In this document: positions 1 to 34,280 of the stretch, piece by piece
How the letters are laid out: every line of letters begins with the position of its first letter
Position numbering within the stretch: position 1 is the first letter of the stretch
Assembly (NCBI GenBank): GCA_038087875.1
Contig: CM075991.1
Span: forward strand, 3,410,001-3,474,000
DNA from: Malacoraja senta
Taxonomy: Eukaryota
Length of the DNA stretch: 64,000 bases
Direction of reading: 5' to 3'
Program-made: the position numbers and the translations under genes
Notes under the pieces: generated by a model
The model's database searches: none
The model's input: the letters and a program-made list of their open reading frames with translations, nothing else
What the model was told of the DNA's origin: nothing

Positions 1-250
1 TTTTCTCACAGAGAGTGGTGAGTCTGTGGAATTCTCTGCCCCAGAGGGCGGTGGAGGCAGGTTCTCTGGATGCTTTCAAGAGAGAGCTAGATAGGGCTCT
101 TAAAAATAGCGGAGCCAGGGGATATGGGGAGAAGGCAGGAACGGGTACAGATTGGGGATGATCAGCCATGATCACATTGAATGGCGGTGCTGGCTCAAAG
201 GGCCAAATGGCCTACTCCTGCACCTATTGTCTATTGTCTATTGTCTATTG
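1..250 (+). mobile_element. CR1 LINE 3' end fragment with (CTATTGT)n tail
   Basis: Encodes FSQRVVSLWNSLP...GYGEKAGTG like the CR1 at 34989-36383, then the 3'UTR stem GGGCCAAATGGCCT and a tandem CTATTGT terminus. Confidence 0.9.
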
Positions 251-340
251 TTCTCTTTGATCTTATTTGATTGTGCACGCCAGGTTGATTGCATTCGTCG
301 AAACAGGGCGGACCACGTGAAGTTTGCAATCTCCCACCCC
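251..340 (-). mobile_element. 3'-truncated copy of HDV-like ribozyme-headed short retroposon (family A)
   Basis: Near-identical to ~936-1025. The ribozyme part spans 287-340; the 3' part is replaced by the adjacent CR1 end. Confidence 0.85.
287..340 (-). ncRNA. Minimal HDV-like ribozyme, with one P3 mismatch
   Basis: GGGGUGG GA GAUUGCA AAC UUCACGU GGU CCGCCCU GU UUCGA CGAA UGCAAUC: 7-bp P1 with G1-U wobble, 7-bp P2, canonical CGAA J4/2. Confidence 0.8.
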
Positions 341-883: not shown

Positions 884-1025
884 TCTTCTTCTTCTTGTGT
901 ATGGCGTGCACAGCCTAAAGTTGTCGGACAACTTGTTCTATTTGATCTTATTTGATTGTGCACGCCAGGTTGATTGCATTGGTTGAAACAGGGCGGACCA
1001 CGTGAAGGTTGCAATCTCCCACCCC
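884..1025 (-). mobile_element. Full-length HDV-like ribozyme-headed short retroposon (family A), 142 bp
   Basis: TSD ATCTGAATGTACT at 871-883 and 1026-1038, (AAG)n tail, and a 5' end at ribozyme G1. Confidence 0.9.
972..1025 (-). ncRNA. Minimal HDV-like ribozyme
   Basis: GGGGUGG GA GAUUGCA ACC UUCACGU GGU CCGCCCU GU UUCAA CCAA UGCAAUC: P1, P2 and P3 all pair; CPEB3-type L3 and J1/4. Confidence 0.85.
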
Positions 1026-24365: not shown

Positions 24366-25034
24366 CTCTTTAATAGCTCAACTAGACACTATTTAAATAC
24401 TGGAAGCAACTTTCTCCGGCAATGCATTGATTCTACAACACTATAATCTGCAATGCACACCACTTTCTGGGCGAAAAGGTCCCTTCCAAATCTCTTATAT
24501 CTTGCTCTTAGTCTATGAGCACTGGCTTTAATCACCTTTGATAAGGGGAGAGGTTGCTGAAATTGCCCCTATCTATTTCCATTCATAATTATACGTACAT
24601 CAGTCATGTTAGAGTCTCTGGATGGAGTGGATGTGGAGAGTGTGTTTGCACTCATGGGAGAGTCTAGGACGAGAGTGTACAGCCCCAGAATAAAAGGACG
24701 TAACATTAAAAAGGTGAGGAGGAATTTCTTTAGTCAGAGGGTGGTGAATCTTGGGAATTCATTGCCACAGACGGCAGTGGAGGCTGTCATTGTGTATTTT
24801 TAAGGCAGAGATTGAGATGGTCTTGATTAGTGAGGGTGTCAATGGTTACGGGGAGAATGGGGTTGAGAGAGAAAAAATGATCAGCCAAGATTGAATGGCG
24901 GAGTAGAATCGATGGGCCGAATGGCCTGATTCTGCTCCTATGTCTTGTGGTCCTATGGTCGGTGGCGTACCGAGGTACTGTGAAAAGCTTTGTTTTGATT
25001 GCTGTTCAATTAGATCAAATAACAGCACGTTAAT

Positions 25035-27165
25035 AATAATAATAATAATAATAATAGATTTTATTTATATAGCGCTTTTCAGGACTCAACGTCACTTTAC
25101 AATTGAGAGTCAGGAATAAACAAAACAAAATAGAGCAGTAAGACAGAGGGGAGGGGAACATGGGACTAAGGGTATGCAGAGGTGAAGAGATGGGTCTTGA
25201 GGGGGGACTGGAAGATGGTGAGGGACTCAGAATTTCGGACCGGTTGTGGGAGGGAATTCCAGAGCCTGGGAGCTGCCCTGGAGAAGGCTCTGCCTCCTAA
25301 AGTGCAGAGGTTTGATTTCGGAGTGGAGAGGAGACCAGCTGATGTGGATCTGAGGGACCGTGAGGGTTGGTAGGGGGAGAGGAGGTCAATGAGATAAGGG
25401 GGGGCCAAGTTGTTGAGGGCTTTGTAGGTGAGGACCAGGATTTTGTAGGTGATCCGGTGGGAAATGGGAAGCCAGTGAAGTTCTTTGAGAACTGGGGTGA
25501 TGTGGTGCCAGGATTTGGTGTGGGTAATGAGTCGGGCGGCTGCATTCTGGACCAGTTGGAGTCGTTTGATGCTGCTGGAATTGATTCCGAAGAGAAGAGA
25601 GTTACAGTAGTCCAGTCGGGAGGAGATGATGCATGGATGAGTCTTTCAGCAGCGGGGGGTGTGAGAGACGATCTGATTTTTGCAATGTTGCGGAGGTGAA
25701 AAAATGATGTTTTGACAACATGGCGGATGTGAGGCTCAAGGGAGAGGGTTGAGTCAAGGATCACGCCAAGGTTGCGTGCCTGAGGAGATGGGGAGACAGT
25801 GGTGCCGTCGATAGTGAGAGTGGGGTTGTTAATTTTAGTGAGTGTTGAATTGGAGCCAATGAGGAGAAATTCTGTTTTGCTACTGTTTAATTTAAGGAAG
25901 TTGAGTTGCATCCAAGATTTGATGGCTGATAGGCAGGAGTTGATATGGGAGAGAGGGGGGTGGTGGGGGGACTTGGTGCTGAGATAGATCTGGGTGTCAT
26001 CAGCATAGCAGTGGAAGTCCAGGTTGAAGTGACGGAGTATATGACCAAGGGGGAGGATGTAGATGATGAAGAGGAGGGGACCAAGAACGGAGCCTTGGGG
26101 AACGCCTTGAGTGACAGTGGCTGTGGCAGAGGTGTGGTTATGGAGAGAGATGAAGTGGGATCGGTTGGAAAGGTAAGAACGGAACCAGCTGAGTGCAGAA
26201 CCTTCAATGCCAAGGTCCCTAAGTCTGGTGAGCAGGATGTTTTGGTTGACGGTATCGAAGGCTGCACTCAGGTCGAGGAGGATGAGGATATTGAGGGAGC
26301 CAGAGTCAGCAGAGGTAAAGAGGTCATTGAGGACTTTGAGGAGAGCAGTTTCTGTGCTATGGAGGGGGCGAAAGCCAGATTGGAGGGGTTCGAATAGGTT
26401 ATACGCGAGGAGGTGGGAATGAAGTTGTGACGCGACGATGCGCTCCAGGGTTTTTGAAAGAAAGGGGAGGTTTGAGATGGGGCGGTAGTTAATGAGAGAG
26501 GAGGGATCAAGACCAGGTTTCTTTAAGATTGGTGTGACAGCAGCAGTTTTGAAAGCAGAGGGGACAGTTCCTTGGGACAATGAGGAGTTGAAAAGATTAG
26601 TGAGGTAGGGGCAGAGAGCAGGGAGGCAGGACTTCAGCAGGGGAGTGGGGAGAGGTTCAAGGGAGCAGGTAGTGGGTTTGGAAGAGCTGATGAGTTTGGA
26701 GATTTCAGTAGGGGTGACCGGGTCAAACTGGGAGAGGAAGCAGTGAGGGGGAGGGGTATGGAGATCAGCGGAGATGTTGAAAGGAGGGGCCTTGGTAGGT
26801 GGTGGCGTAGATGCTGGGGAGTCGGGTACAGGGGATAGGGATTGATAGATGGTGCTAATTTTATCAGCAAAAAAGTGGAGGAATGAGTTGCAGAGATCCG
26901 GAGTGGAGGTAGGGAGAGTGATGGCTCGAGGCTTGAGGAGGTTGCAGACTGTGGAGAAGAGGGTTCTGTGGTTTAGGCAGGGGTCAGTGAATATGGAGGA
27001 GAGGTATGCAGATTTAGCAGCAATGAGGGCATCTTTGTAGGCAGTGAGGTGGAGTTTGTAAGCTTCATGGTGGACTGTGAGAGGTGATTTCTTTATGAGT
27101 CGTTCAAGTCGGCGACCAATCTGTTTCAGCTTACGAAGTGCAGGTGTGTACCAGGGTGAAGATTT
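25035..27165 (-). mobile_element. L2-clade LINE, 5' truncated, with RT domain
   Basis: NYRPISNLPFLSK, LLDLSAAFDTV, GVPQGSVLGP, YADDTQIY; frameshift at ~25625; stop after HLFTSAYP at 25166; (TTA)n tail. Confidence 0.93.
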
Positions 27166-28436
27166 CAATCAAGTTAAATACAATCAAGTTAAACTCAAGC
27201 ACAATAGGTAGAGCAAAGGGGAAGATACAGAGTGCAGAATATAGTTCTCAGCATTGTAGCGCAACAATTCCAAAGACAGTCCAAACAAGGATGAAATAAA
27301 CGAAGGCAGAGATTAAGAGGTTCTTGATTAGCATGGGCGTCAAAGGTTACGGGGAGAAGGCTGGAGAATGGGGCTTTCCCCTGCTGCCCTTCTTGAACGG
27401 AGGGAGCACATTTACCATCTTCCACTTTGATCAACCTGGGACACTGCAACCCCTGCTCACATTCTCTTCACTGTGGACACTAACTGAGCATTTTATACTC
27501 TCCTTGCTGACTGTCTCCAATTCCAATTCCTATCCCACCGAGCCTGTGGCAACCAGTGATCACCCTGAGATTACACCAACACCGTCCAACACACGAGACA
27601 CATTTACAATTTGACATAAGCCAATTAACCTACATACAAGCCTGTACGTCTTTGGAGTGCAAGAGGAAACCTGCAAAGGGGCTGCCTTTGAGCTTCCTGT
27701 TACTTCACCCTGACACACACAGCACTATTTTGGCGGTGCTTTGGTATAAAATGTGGGCTACGGCCTGGCAGCTGCAGTGCTATCTGTTGGAGTCATAGAG
27801 TCACACAGCACGGAAACAGGCCCAACTTGCCCACACCAACCAAGCTGCCCCATCTACACTAGTGAGAAGGAATGGGTGACGTTTCGGATCGAGACCTTTC
27901 TTCGGAAGAAGGGTCTCGTCCCGAAACGTCGCCCATTCCTTCTCTCCAGAGATGCCGCCTGTCCCGCTGAGTTACTCTAGCATTTTGTGTCTATCTCTGG
28001 TTTAAACCAGCATCTGCATTTCCTTCCTAACCATCTACTCAATATTCACAGTCAAGTGAAGAAACTTACTGTATAGCTGACAAGTCAGGATTCTGACTTA
28101 ATTCCAGATAAATGTGTGTAGACATGTCGTAATGTTTCCACAGGCAAATTGAATCGTTTAGACTTTAGACTTTCAGAGATACAGCACAGAAACAGGCCCT
28201 TCACCGCACCGAGTACGAGCCAATCAGCGATCACCCCACACACCAGCACCATCCTACACACTAGGGACAATTTATAATTTTACAGAAGCCAAATGAACCT
28301 ACAAACCTGCACGTCTTTGGAACGTGGGAGGAAACCAGAGCACCCGGAGAAAACCCACATGGTCATGGGAAGAAAGTACAAATTCCACACAGACAGCACC
28401 TGTAGTCAGGATTAAACTCGGTCTCTGGCGCTGTAA

Positions 28437-28704
28437 AGGGCCTGTCCCACTTGGCGATTTTTTTTGGCGATTGCCGGCATTGACTGACGTATCATTGACT
28501 GATGTATCAGGGTCGCCAAAAGATGTTGAACATCTCAAATTCCAGCGGCGACAAAAAAATGTTGCGACACTTGAGGAAACACCACGCATCAACACGCCAT
28601 CATGCCGCGTCACGACGCATCACGCTGCAACTTTTTCGATAACCTGATACGTCAGTCAATGATGCCAACAGTCGTCAAATAAATTGCCAAATGGGACAGG
28701 CCCT
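28437..28704. mobile_element. PIF/Harbinger-like MITE inside an HE1-like SINE (mirror copy at ~32030-32297)
   Basis: TAA on both sides; TIR AGGGCCTGTCCCA. Confidence 0.85.
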
Positions 28705-28809
28705 TAAAACAGCAACTCCACAGCTGCGCCTGATTGCATTTGGCCCATATCCCTCTAAATGATTCTTGGAGTACAGTAAAACTCTATTAATCAAGAATCT
28801 GGATTAGCA

Positions 28810-29960
28810 TAGTGGGTTAGCATCTGATGAGCGTTTGACAGCACTGGGCCTCGACTCACTGGAGTTTAGAAGGTTGAGGGGGCACTTCATTGAAACTTAC
28901 AGAATAATGAAAGGCATAGTTAGAGTGGATGTGGAAAGGATGTTTCCACTGGTGAGAGAGTCCAGGACGAGAGGTCACATCCTCAGAATTAAAGGGTGCT
29001 CTTTTGGAAAGGAGGTGAGGAGGAACTTCTTTAGTCAGAGGGTGGTTAATCTGTGGAACTCATTGCCACAGAGGGCTGTGGAGGTCAAGTCAGTGGATAT
29101 TTTTAAGGCAGAGATAGACAAATTCTTGATTAGAACGGGTGTCAAGGGTTATGGGGAGAAGGCAGGAAAATGGGATTAGGAGGCGGAGATCAGCCATGAT
29201 TGAATGACGGAGTAGACTGGATGGGCCGAATGGCCTAATTCTACTATAATTGGTGGTTGTGAATCTGGATGTTTGGATATCTTGATAGTCTGGCATCTGG
29301 TCCGCTCATTAGTTTAAATGTGACCTTGGATTATGGAATGCTAGTGAGCTGCAGAGACAGAGCTGGGGTCCAGAGTATGACTGGAGCCAGGATCAGGCTT
29401 GTTGGCTGAGTATGCAACCAGATGTTTACAGTCAGGACAACTGTCTAATGTGTATACAAAGAAGATGAAGAGACATGTCTATAGTCAGAGGGTGGTGAGT
29501 CTGTGGAACTCATTGCTGCAGAAGGCTGTGGAGGCTAAGTCAGTGGATATTTTTAAGGCAGAGATAGATCGATTCTTGATTTGTACGGGTGTCAGAGGTT
29601 ATGGGGAGAAGGCAGGAGAATGGGGTTAGGAGGGAGAGATAGATCAGCCATGGTTCTATGGCGGAGTAGACTTGATGGGCCGAATGGCCTAATTCTACTC
29701 CTATCCCTTATGAAGAGAAATTTCTTTAGTCAGAGGGTGGTGAGTCTGTGGAATTCATTGCCACAGACGGTGGTGGAGACCAAGTCACTGTGTATTTTTA
29801 AAGTGGAAATTAAAAGTTCTTGATTAGTAAAGGTGTCGTGGGTTATGGGGGGAAGGCAGGAGAATTGTGTTGAGAGGGGCAGATAGATCAGCCATGATCG
29901 AATGATGGAGAGACAGACGGAGCCGAACGGCCTAATTCTGCCCCTGTGTCTTATGTCTTA
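28810..29960 (+). mobile_element. Tandem CR1 3' fragments
   Basis: Three RVV(N/S)LWNSL...GYGEKAG ends. Confidence 0.85.
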
Positions 29961-30126
29961 CGTATGTTTGCACATTTCTCACTCGCTTTAACTTGACTGG
30001 GTTTACTTGAAGATTTGTTGCAGGTAGTTCTGCTGCAACCCAATCGTTGCATTCCTAAGGAAATCCGTGTTATAGAAAATTATGATACAAAGACAATTGT
30101 ATCAGTGGGGGGACAACAGGGAGTTA

Positions 30127-30620
30127 AGGGGCTGTCCCACTTGGGCGACCTAATTGGCGAGTTTGGAAGAGTTTGAAAAAATGACATGTAGAAGACCTCC
30201 TTCGACTATGTAGAAGACTATCTTCGACCAGCTATGACTAGCTACGACTAACTTTGGGAAAATTGGACACCGAATAGTGGAGAGTGAAGACGACCGATCT
30301 CCTTCGACCTCCCTTTGAATATGATGAAGACTATCTACAGCTACCTTTGACTACCCTCGATTACCTACGACTAACATGCCGACCTACTACGACTAAACCT
30401 ACGAGTAAAAAAAGTATTGATTTTTTCCATGGCGACCTTTTTTTTACTCGCGGGCATTTTTTAACATATTGAAAAAAAACGCCGCGACCAAGCTGGGGCC
30501 TCGAGTACGCGGAGACCACTCTCGAGCATGAAGGAGAGTTACAAAGTCCTCCTACGACCTCATGTCGACCATGCTGCGAGTATGAGTCGAAGACAAACTC
30601 GCCAGATTAGGTCGCCCTTT
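30127..30620. mobile_element. PIF/Harbinger-like MITE of the 3497-4024 family, opposite orientation, right TIR partly deleted
   Basis: TTA|AGGGGCTGTCCCACTTGGGCGACCTAAT; the body is the reverse complement of the 3.5-4.0 kb copy. Confidence 0.8.
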
Positions 30621-30636
30621 AGGGATTAGAGAGTAA

Positions 30637-30961
30637 TGCCCCTGTCCCACTTAGGAAACCTGAACGGAAACCTCTGGAGACTTTGCGCCCCACCCAAGGT
30701 TTCCGTGCGGTTCCCGGAGGTTTTTGTCAGTCTCCCTAATGGTCGACAGTGGTTTCCGCTTCTTCTATGTTCCGGCGATTATTTCAAAAAATTCAAAATC
30801 GGCCGCGACTAAAAATAGGTTGCCGTTTTAAAAATCGGTAATTTTTTAGTTGAAGCCGTTTGCGATGCTAGTTGAAGGTGGTTGCCGGAGATTGCAGGTA
30901 GTGGAAGGTCAGACCTTTTTTTCACCCAGTTTTATTCCACCAGGGAGGTCTTACCTTCCAC
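30637..30961. mobile_element. Second half-copy of the long-palindromic MITE
   Basis: TIR, loop, then AGGTCTTACCTTCCA (30946-30960), the reverse complement of TGGAAGGTAAGACCT that precedes the loop in the 24 kb copy. Confidence 0.8.
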
Positions 30962-33900
30962 CACCGTCTGTGGCAATGAATTCCACAGACTCACCACCCT
31001 CTGACTAAAGAAATTTCTCTTCATAAGGGATAGGAGTAGAATTAGGCCATTCGGCCCATCAAGTCTACTCCGCCATAGAACCATGGCTGATCTATCTCTC
31101 CCTCCTAACCCCATTCTCCTGCCTTCTCCCCATAACCTCTGACACACGTACAAATCAAGAATCGATCTATCTCTGCCTTAAAAATATCCACTGACTTAGC
31201 CTCCACAGCCTTCTGCAGCAATGAGTTCCACAGACTCACCACCCTCTGACTATAGACATGTCTCTTCATCTTCTTTGTATACACATTAGACAGTTGTCCT
31301 GACTGTAAACATCTGGTTGCATACTCAGCCAACAAGCCTGATCCTGGCTCCAGTCATACTCTGGACCCCAGCTCTGTCTCTGCAGCTCACTAGCATTCCA
31401 TAATCCAAGGTCACATTTAAACTAATGAGCGGACCAGATGCCAGACTATCAAGATATCCAAACATCCAGATTCACAACCACCAATTATAGTAGAATTAGG
31501 CCATTCGGCCCATCCAGTCTACTCCGTCATTCAATCATGGCTGATCTCCGCCTCCTAATCCCATTTTCCTGCCTTCTCCCCATAACCCTTGACACCCGTT
31601 CTAATCAAGAATTTGTCAATCTCTGCCTTAAAAATATCCACTGACTTGACCTCCACAGCCCTCTGTGGCGATGAGTTCCACAGATTAACCACCCTCTCAC
31701 TAAAGAAGTTCCTCCTCACCTCCTTTCTAAAAGAGCACCCTTTAATTCTGAGGCTGTGACCTCTGGTCCTGGACTCTCCCACCAGTGGAAACATCCTTTC
31801 CACATCCACTCTAACTATGCCTTTCATTATTCTGTAAGTTTCAATGAGGTCCCCCCTCAACCTTCTAAACTCCAGTGAGTCGAGGCCCACTGCTGTCAAA
31901 CACTCATCATATGCTAACCCACTATGCTAATCCAGATTCTTGATTAATAGAGTTTTACTGTACTCCAAGAATCATTTAGAGGGATATGGGCCAAATGCAA
32001 TCAGGCGCAGCTGTGGAGTTGCTGTTTTAAGGGCCTGTCCCATTTGGCAATTTTTTCGGCGACTGTTGGCATCATTGACTGACGTATCAGGTCATCGAAA
32101 AAGTTGCAGCGTGATGCGGCGTGACGCGGCATGATGGCGTGTTGATGCGCGGTGTTTCCTCAAGTGTCGCAACATTTTTTTATCGCCGCTGGAATTTGAG
32201 ATGTTCAAAATCTTTTGACGACCCTGATACGTCAGTCAATGATACGTCAGTCAATGCCGGCAATCGCCAAAAAAATCAGCAAGTGGGACAGGCCCTTTAC
32301 AGCGCCAGAGACCGAGTTTAATCCTGACTACAGGTGCTGTCTGTGTGGAATTTGTACTTTCTTCCCGTGAACATGTGGGTTTTCTCCGGCTGCTCTGGTT
32401 TCCTCCCACGTTCCAAAGACGTGCAGGTTTGTAGGTTCATTTGGCTTCCGTAAAATTATAAATTGTCCCTAGTGTGTAGGATGGTGCTGGTGTGTGGGGT
32501 GATCGCTGGTTGGCTCGTACTCGGTGCGGTGAAGGACCTGTTTCTATGCTGTATCTCTGAAAGTCTAAAGTCTAAACGATTCAATTTGCCTGTGGAAACA
32601 TTACGACATGTCTACACACATTTATCTGGAATTAAGTCAGAATCCTGACTTGTCAGCTATACAGTAAGTTTCTTCACTTGACTGTGAATATTGAGTAGAT
32701 GGTTAGGAAGGAAATGCAGATGCTGGTTTAAACCAGAGATAGACACAAAATGCTAGAGTAACTCAGCGGGACAGGCAGCATCTCTGGAGAGAAGGAATGG
32801 GCGACGTTTCGGGACGAGACCCTTGTTCCGAAGAAAGGTCTCGATCTGAAACGTCACCCATTCCTTCTCACTAGTGTAGATGGGGCAGCTTGGTTGGAGT
32901 GGGCAAGTTGGGCCTGTTTCCGTGCTGTGTGACTCTATGACTCCAACAGATAGCACTGCAGCTGCCAGGCCGTAGCCCACATTTTATACTGATGAGGGAT
33001 AAATATAGGCCAAAGCACCGCCAAAATAGTGCTGTGTGTGTCAGGGTGAAGTAAGAGGAAGCTCAAAGGCAGCCCCTTTGCAGGTTTCCTCTTGCACTCC
33101 AAAGACGTACAGGCTTGTATGTAGCTTAATTGGCTTATGTCAAATTGTAAATATGTCTCGTGTGTTGGACGGTGTTGGTGTAATCTCAGGGTGATCACTG
33201 GTTGCCACAGGCTCGGTGGGATAGGAATTGGAATTGGAGACAGTCAGCAAGGAGAGTATAAAATGCTCAGTTAGTGTCCACAGTGAAGAGAAAGTGAGCA
33301 GGGGATGCAGTGTCCCAGGTTGATCGAAGTGGAGGATGGTAAATGTGCTCCCTCCGTTCAAGAAGGGCAGCAGGGGAAAGCCCCATTCTCCAGCCTTCTC
33401 CCCGTAACCTTTGACGCCCATGCTAATCAAGAACCTCTCAATCTCTGCCTTCGTTTATTTCATCCTTGTTTGGACTGTCTCTGGGACTAGTGCGCTACAA
33501 TGCTGAGAACTATATTCTGCACTCTGTATCTTCCCCTTTGCTCTACCTATTGTGCTTGAGTTTAGCTTGATTGTATTAACTTGTGCTGTTATTTGATCTA
33601 ATTGAACAGCAATCAAAACAAAGCTTTTCACAGTACCTCGGTACGCCACCGACCATAGGACCACAAGACATCGGAGCAGAATCAGGCCATTCGGCCCATC
33701 GATTCTACTCCGCCATTCAATCTTGGCTGATCTTTTTTTCTCTCAACCCCATTCTCCCCGTAACCGTTGACACCCTCACTAATCAAGAACCTCTCAATCT
33801 CTGCCTTAAAAATATCCAAATGACAGCCTCCACTGCCGTCTGTGGCAATGAATTCCCAAGATTCACCACCCTCTGACTAAAGAAATTCCTCCTCATCTTT

Positions 33901-34280
33901 TTAATGTTACGTCCTTTTATTCTGGGGCTGTACACTCTCGTCCTAGACTCTCCAACGAGTGCAAACACACTCTCAACATCCACTCCATCCAGAGACTCTA
34001 ACATGACTGATGTACGTATAATTATGAATGGAAATAGATAGGGGCAATTTCAGCAACCTCTCCCCTTTTCAAAGGTGATTATAGCCAGTGCGCATAGACT
34101 AAGAGCAAGGTATAAGAGATTTGGAAGGGACCTTTTTCGCCCAAAGAGTGGTGTGCATTGCAGATTATAGTGTTGTCGGAGAAAGTTTATAGTGTTGTCG
34201 GAGTGCATTGCAGAAATGCATTGCCGGAGAAAGTTTCTTCCAGTATTTAAGAAGTGTCTAGTTGAGCTAATAAAGAGCCT
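30957..34280 (-). repeat. Right arm of inverted segmental duplication
   Basis: Reverse complement of the left arm without the L2; empty L2 site at ~33575. Confidence 0.95.

Follow-up and report, generated by a model that had tools for sequence, protein, structure and literature searches.

A 142-nt non-autonomous retrotransposon was identified on the minus strand of a 64,000-nt stretch of the Malacoraja senta genome (GenBank assembly GCA_038087875.1, contig CM075991.1, positions 3,410,001 to 3,474,000), called the window below. To judge from sequence comparison, it is almost certainly a short internally deleted element (SIDE) of V1, a Vingi-type long interspersed nuclear element (LINE), and consists of the first ~81 nt of V1, ~13 nt of filler and the last ~48 nt of V1. 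Its head has the fold of a ribozyme like that of hepatitis delta virus (HDV), in minimal form with a 5-nt P4 stub, and a predicted helix connects its 5′ and 3′ parts.

The element and its parent LINE

In two runs, loose ends at element position 102 match DNA upstream of locus L031. This DNA codes for the C-terminus of a LINE, with a zinc knuckle, and the stop codon falls at element positions 109–111. The host genome (1.94 Gb) was searched with P0003, a public full-length relative of 1019 aa with apurinic/apyrimidinic endonuclease (APE) and reverse transcriptase (RT) domains and no RNase H. This search identified families V1 (60–80% identical), V2 (~48%) and V3 (~40%). V1 copy L123 (~2.8 kb) has element positions 2–77 at its 5′ end, positions 102–138 at its 3′ end and an 11-bp target-site duplication (TSD); it is the LINE sharing both termini that the original prediction envisaged. 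Element positions 1–81 align to the heads of L123 and L135, the 5′ end of V1, and positions 95–142 align to the 3′ ends of L120, L122 and L123. The V1 open reading frame (ORF) begins ~106 nt from G1, the first nucleotide of the element. Compared over the head, L094, a LINE-like copy, disagrees with L123 at 2 of 79 positions and with L135 at 1 of 72.

The element itself is 142 nt long without an ORF, its 5′ part and its 3′ part with the tail are homologous to V1, and it carries the hallmarks of target-primed reverse transcription. Because the head comes from the 5′ end of the LINE itself, the element is best classed as a SIDE and not as a short interspersed nuclear element (SINE) with an acquired ribozyme. 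An earlier description as a SINE-like family thus holds in that the family is non-autonomous and ribozyme-headed, and fails in that it is not an independent SINE. The features are as follows (L123 and L135 supplied the head alignment):

884–1025, minus strand: whole element, 142 nt, very probably a short internally deleted V1 derivative (repeat and LINE comparison)
972–1025, minus strand: HDV-like ribozyme fold, 54 nt, of predicted activity (fold parse and descriptor scan)
1025–1019 with 996–990, minus strand: P1, 7 bp including G1-U
1016–1010 with 978–972, minus strand: P2, 7 bp
1009–1007 with 999–997, minus strand: P3, 3 bp; L3 at 1006–1000 (UUCACGU)
989–988, minus strand: GU; P4 stub at 987–983 (5 nt)
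982–979, minus strand: J4/2, CCAA; predicted catalytic C at 982
5′ of 1025 (G1), minus strand: predicted cut site
945–1025, minus strand: homologous to the first ~81 nt of the ~106-nt V1 5′ untranslated region (UTR)
957–967, minus strand: predicted end-to-end helix, 5′ strand, element 59–69 (folding and helix comparison)
932–944, minus strand: junction filler, ~13 nt, no V1 match (V1 alignment)
918–934, minus strand: 7-bp hairpin, element 92–108, across the deletion junction (folding)
884–931, minus strand: homologous to the V1 3′ end, including the V1 stop codon (917–915) and 3′ UTR
902–912, minus strand: predicted end-to-end helix, 3′ strand, element 114–124 (folding and helix comparison)
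884–902, minus strand: terminal pentamer and (AAG)n tail
871–883, no strand: TSD, 13 bp, tail side
1026–1038, no strand: TSD, 13 bp, abutting G1
248–340, minus strand: second copy, element 1–93 (repeat search)

Every part of the fold named in the original prediction, and the 13-bp TSD adjoining G1, is present when the minus strand is read from 1025. The junction filler looks like a local duplication and may have arisen as one. Most copies, and related LINEs as well, have A-Y-A-C-G as the terminal pentamer.

An RT tree of 36 rows places V1, V2 and V3 together with other APE-RT proteins of ~1000 aa in a clade supported at 100/100. RNase H is absent from the six members of this clade that were scanned and present in the five ~1300-aa neighbours that were scanned. 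A single ORF with APE and RT, a C-terminal zinc knuckle and no RNase H was found by way of P0003, V3 and the V1 C-terminus. Vingi is defined in PMC13708176 as the RNase-H-less sister of Ingi, and V1 fits this definition, on which its name here rests. The assignment is limited in that no row of the tree is a named Vingi or Ingi reference. No intact ORF is among the V1-like hits listed, so the V1 driver may be extinct. Some V3 copies (L138 and others) have open frames of ~1000 aa and end in an (AAG)n tail; this family appears younger than V1 and is possibly still mobile. The C-terminal 101 aa of V1 are 81% identical to a metagenome protein and 74% identical to a protein named from the eel Synaphobranchus kaupii (the two being P0001 and P0002), identities that may point to horizontal transfer. 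No relative of P0003 was found in viral_contigs. Inverted 5′ segments are frequent in V1 copies (L118, L120, L122 and L136). Three inverted heads begin at element positions 9–19, a pattern that would fit twin priming if the RNA starts at the ribozyme.

The original prediction had named Vingi or RTE as the (AAG)n-tailed LINE that mobilises the family; Vingi stands in the form of V1, and RTE was rejected since the 3′ end is not shared. A DUF6451 search gave 772 candidates (150 scored), of which 25 RTE-type loci in three families were compared by their 3′ ends; one family has an (AAG)n tail and none shares the 3′ end of the element beyond the tail. An endonuclease-domain search (10 of 150 loci) yielded other LINE types and no ribozyme head.

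The same comparisons bear on a SINE transcribed by RNA polymerase III (Pol III), with a tRNA-like or small-RNA head and a borrowed RTE or Vingi tail. Such a SINE would find some encouragement in the P4 stub of most copies (UUCGA), which resembles a B-box core, in the lack of a run of four T in the element and in the existence of an (AAG)n-tailed RTE family in this genome. Against these stand the identity of the head with V1's own 5′ end, the lack of any Rfam tRNA or small-RNA match and the three RTE families, whose 3′ ends are shared only as far as the tail. Strict A- and B-box patterns do not match either, in agreement with the initial reading that Pol III boxes are missing. A degenerate Pol III promoter is possible given the B-box-like stub. 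The Pol III explanation as a whole is very improbable and already largely refuted, and descent from V1 is the reading followed here.

Genomic copies and insertion hallmarks

The 3′ 22-mer of the element has 3518 exact matches in the genome and the 5′ 28-mer has 4052, each with 0 for its reversed control. An exact 3′ match is also present in 33 of the first 100 5′ matches (matched by hand). This overlap therefore implies roughly 10^4 copies, an estimate made rough by subfamily structure and some duplicated contigs. The V1 3′ end has 369 genome matches at ≤2 mismatches, so the SIDE outnumbers its parent ~10-fold. Copies are dispersed, with TSDs of 10–13 bp, an (AAG)n tail and unrelated DNA upstream of G1. 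They diverge from the majority sequence by 5% on average (43 copies). With four duplicated loci removed, a TSD flanks 60 of the 70 full copies (mode 11–12 bp), compared with 8 of 210 mismatched flank pairs.

Copies picked by the 3′ motif alone begin at G1±2 in 25 of 30 cases, the pile-up of 5′ ends expected at the outset. The five exceptions are the V1 LINE 3′ end at L031, a very short LINE-type end (L035), an insertion-interrupted copy whose head begins near G1 (L047) and copies that begin at element positions 6 (L034) and 20 (L051). L035 has a head-like 10-mer past its tail and is a possible circular permutation, seen once in 30. Twenty copies with the 5′ motif and no exact 3′ motif comprised 18 full elements, two interrupted ones and no LINE. 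One GC-rich repeat, which is probably a DNA element, interrupts both L089 and L104. At least half of the element's words are held by 19 public runs under seven organism codes; nine of these may be the source itself. The element occurs in contigs of three runs guessed to be RNA, an occurrence that does not in itself show transcription from G1.

The putative ribozyme head

The 54-nt head parses into a 7-bp P1 with G1-U, a 2-nt J1/2, a 7-bp P2 and a 3-bp P3. The nested double pseudoknot P1-P2-P3-(P1.1), with L3 and a C-N-R-A J4/2, is complete, P1.1 being a single C-G pair. A descriptor scan returned exactly one match in the window, the head, and 0 in 100 Markov-resampled windows. Among the first 100 genome matches, the catalytic C is kept in 96, and J4/2 is CGAA in ~57 and CUAA in 29 (hand count). 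The window copy, with CCAA, has drifted from the family at two sites.

HDV-like folds are carried at the same place by V2, V3 and metagenome relatives (27 loci). A relaxed parse gave complete folds in L141–L144 and L153; the heads of L146–L148 are truncated or damaged by eye. No fold was found in L140 by the relaxed parse or in more distant loci by the first scan. Over eight Vingi-type heads, pairing is kept in 55 of 56 cells of P2, 24 of 24 of P3 and 34 of 35 of P1 columns 3–7, and many columns show two to four different pair types. This covariation supports the HDV-like fold. P4 is shortest, at 5 nt, in V1 and the SIDE, and spans 14–35 nt in the other Vingi-type heads. Heads of V3 score 63.8, 52.6 and 40.7 bits on the Rfam CPEB3_ribozyme model (cut-off 35), the L144 head scores 43.3 bits on Rfam, and L153 scores 39.9 bits on HDV-F-prausnitzii (cut-off 44). 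In two V3 heads a 26-nt unit (part of P1 to P3) is arrayed in tandem, in 4 copies in L127 and 6 in L129, of which only the last is followed by P4 and J4/2. In L141 and L143 the 5′ strand of P1 is apparently split by an inserted hairpin of ~20 nt.

CpG decay was counted by hand. At L3 and the catalytic C it affects 17 of 271 cells, compared with 36 of 271 at stub and J4/2 sites (Fisher p = 0.009), a weak sign of selection on source copies for which sequence context is another possible cause. A first reading of the L3 CpG as nearly invariant was dropped after changes were counted in 7 and 6 of 100 copies, and because of these changes the L3 constraint signal is weak. At several CpG sites, sense-strand G-to-A changes outnumber C-to-T, for example 15 versus 9 of 100 in the stub.

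Several results count against an active ribozyme that sets the 5′ end. An Rfam scan of the window gave 0 matches at gathering score, and no ribozyme family matched positions 200–1200 at E ≤ 10; the element head lies below the gathering score, which the related heads of V3 and L144 exceed. Taken as a nested fold, the 54 nt have no more than ordinary stability (z = +0.66). Only 10 of 25 full 3′-picked copies pass a strict all-pairs ribozyme test, and three more are shifted by one J1/2 base. In the eight-head alignment, made of single decayed copies, no more than 4 of 7 heads pair at P1 position 1, and 2 of 8 do so at one position of P1.1. The four runs examined are all contigs, and for three of them RNA is a guess. 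The pile-up of 5′ ends at G1 cannot separate cleavage from an internal promoter. A 142-nt template would rarely be 5′-truncated anyway.

The 5′ end of the SIDE could instead be set by an internal RNA polymerase II (Pol II) promoter at G1, with the ribozyme fold secondary, slow or a nuclease barrier only. There is precedent in Pr77 of L1Tc/NARTc, which is promoter and ribozyme at once, and in well-folded trypanosomatid heads that in some cases did not cleave, both according to PMC4035085. For R2 templates, PMC11331408 reports that the fold, not necessarily activity, improved insertion, and P4 of the element is only a 5-nt stub. A DNA promoter does not predict constancy of the catalytic C, of L3 and of the J1/4 G across families in which the sequences of P1, P2, P3 and P4 turn over. 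The lower CpG decay at L3 and the catalytic C than at the stub and J4/2 also speaks against a promoter, subject to the same context effect. We regard a promoter as the determinant of the 5′ end as rather improbable, and cleavage of the family consensus as likely.

The predicted end-to-end helix

The 3′ 88 nt of the element fold with z = −4.0, and 0 of 200 shuffles are as good. This stability comes through an 11-bp helix, 59–69/114–124, and the 7-bp hairpin at 92–108 (element numbering). The helix was compared across 15 rows by pairing the 22 nt that follow P2 with the 16 nt that lead up to the terminal pentamer, with 1000 shuffles. A Watson-Crick run of 8–10 bp is present in 11 of the 15. It begins 4–7 nt after the ribozyme and ends 0–2 nt before the terminal motif; in nine rows it begins 4–5 nt after P2 and ends at the pentamer. 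V1 (L122) and one LINE-like SIDE have the helix shifted by 2 nt because of one A-C mismatch. Shuffles as good number ≤3 of 1000 in 10 of the 11 helix rows and 25 of 1000 in L141. Six different helix sequences occur (V1/SIDE, V3, L141–143, L144, L146 and L147 types), and relative to L143 both strands are changed in step in L144 and in L147, that is, with compensation. Strands paired across families reach ≥8 bp in 10 of 186 combinations, all among four relatives with nearly the same helix. In the main SIDE subfamily the A-C mismatch of V1 has become a G-C pair, and among the scorable copies (66 of 70) a helix of 10–11 bp is found in 36 of 55 in this subfamily, compared with 1 of 11 that are LINE-like.

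A general role of this helix is called into question by several results. V2 has no helix (3 bp, 984 of 1000 shuffles as good), the L148 helix is weak (5 bp, 248 of 1000), L129/132 has 6 bp and the decayed L123 has 4 bp, and six of the metagenome rows (L141–L147) form one related clade and are not independent.

The complementarity may alternatively act on DNA or cDNA, in strand transfer or formation of the 5′ junction, or be a functionless inherited by-product. A role in DNA would suit the sequence of the helix 5′ strand, which is that of the first cDNA bases, the palindrome in the V1 version of the helix and the frequent 5′ inversions in V1 (L118, L120, L122, L136); the lack of a helix in V2 would suit either alternative. 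A DNA-level role accords less well with a register fixed relative to two RNA landmarks, with the stepwise-matched strand changes of L144 and L147 and with the A-C to G-C change of the SIDE, which lengthens the helix in most main-subfamily copies. Both alternatives together appear doubtful, and the balance tips slightly toward a functional role of the helix in RNA.

Proposed mechanism

We propose that the element is a V1 SIDE with a ribozyme head and end-to-end closure, an explanation that we consider probable overall. Pol II would transcribe the copies, for the most part when reading through from promoters of the host. The HDV-like ribozyme, 54 nt long and P4-less, would then cut 5′ of G1 so that all 5′ ends are alike, and its pseudoknot may shield the uncapped end, as proposed for R2 templates (PMC11331408). 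The strand behind the ribozyme would pair with the strand before the terminal pentamer and close the RNA end to end. The V1 endonuclease-RT protein would recognise the closed end in trans and insert the RNA by target-primed reverse transcription. That the RNAs of Vingi-type LINEs close in this way in general, and that the RT protein requires the closed structure, is advanced tentatively, at somewhat less than even confidence. The mechanism in the original prediction, self-cleavage out of read-through transcripts, would be largely right.

A possible link to the CPEB3 ribozyme

In mammals the CPEB3 ribozyme (Rfam RF00622) occupies a single intronic locus, and its P4 is complete. The element itself does not match RF00622; its L3 (UUCACGU), the GU after P1 and the family J4/2 (CGAA) nevertheless match the consensus. 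The V3 head (5′ ends of L127, L128 and L129) has a 17-nt run in common with the RF00622 consensus that includes P2 bases not fixed by catalysis. A genome search with RF00622 (~102,000 rough candidates at the first pass) placed 39 of 51 listed hits above the cut-off. About 30 hits are only 59–65 nt long (32–44 bits), for example C13:8596080-8596144 and C2:95332788-95332852, and may represent another abundant family headed by a minimal ribozyme. Old traces of Vingi are present in the human genome according to PMC5753468. An ancient Vingi element could have left its 5′ end stranded as the mammalian CPEB3 ribozyme, though on the present comparison this seems unlikely. A literature search, with most subscription papers, patents, Repbase and Dfam outside its scope, found no report of a Vingi-CPEB3 link.

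Other features of the window

The remainder of the second copy (element 96–138) lies ~700 bp further on, beyond the window and past a later repeat insertion. A large inverted duplication occupies positions 24474–34136; its arms, 27177–29777 and 30957–33577, are ~98% complementary, and a further pair lies at 24474–24791 and 33819–34136.

Relation to known systems

The ribozyme-headed SIDE is a known kind of element. PMC5786205 describes bipartite non-autonomous elements for RTE, Ingi, Vingi and R2 and states that the reason for this bias is unknown; its list of ribozyme-bearing clades omits Vingi. The same source cites Kojima et al. 2011 for internal-deletion derivatives of hedgehog Vingi-1_EE, which are like the element in joining 5′ and 3′ Vingi ends and moving in trans and differ from it in host and family. 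Drosophila R2 SIDEs (PMC3414825) also have an HDV-like head, a LINE 3′ end and no ORF, and their cleavage has been shown. They are specific to rDNA, ~530 bp long and low in copy number, with a large J1/2, whereas the present element is dispersed, 142 nt long and present in ~10^4 copies with an APE-type driver. The closest functional analogues are the trypanosomatid NARTc, RIME and SIDER, short Ingi-group derivatives with an HDV-like head (PMC4035085), where cleavage was also shown for L1Tc/ingi. Their drivers have RNase H and their 77-nt head has a P4 helix; the element has a 5-nt P4 stub and an (AAG)n tail. Minimal P4-less HDV-like and theta ribozymes share the double-pseudoknot core without a P4 domain. 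In the account of PMC10879173, nearly 99% of theta and minimal matches are in phages and the origin and function of the minimal ones are called undetermined. Here, unlike in phages, the P4-less head sits on an animal LINE and its SIDE. The 'Ingi' ribozymes of Ruminski 2011 may include elements now called Vingi. The literature search described above found no report of the element family, a Vingi ribozyme, the end-to-end helix or a P4-less HDV-like head on an animal LINE; the family, or a Vingi ribozyme, may have been described before.

The family offers an animal retrotransposon setting for P4-less ribozymes with thousands of natural variants, and the CPEB3-like head of V3 is a lead on the origin of the mammalian CPEB3 ribozyme. 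Vingi-1 is under development for RNA-only gene insertion with both UTRs present on the donor RNAs (PMC13708176), and pairing rules between the UTRs bear on the design of such templates. The covarying 5′-3′ helix gives a directly testable candidate answer to why few clades produce bipartite elements. If it closes the RNA as proposed, closure would account for the two-ended derivatives that arise in the Vingi-type clade. The 142-nt element would then come close to a minimal natural template, a 54-nt P4-less ribozyme plus a panhandle, and would have out-replicated its parent through a tighter helix.
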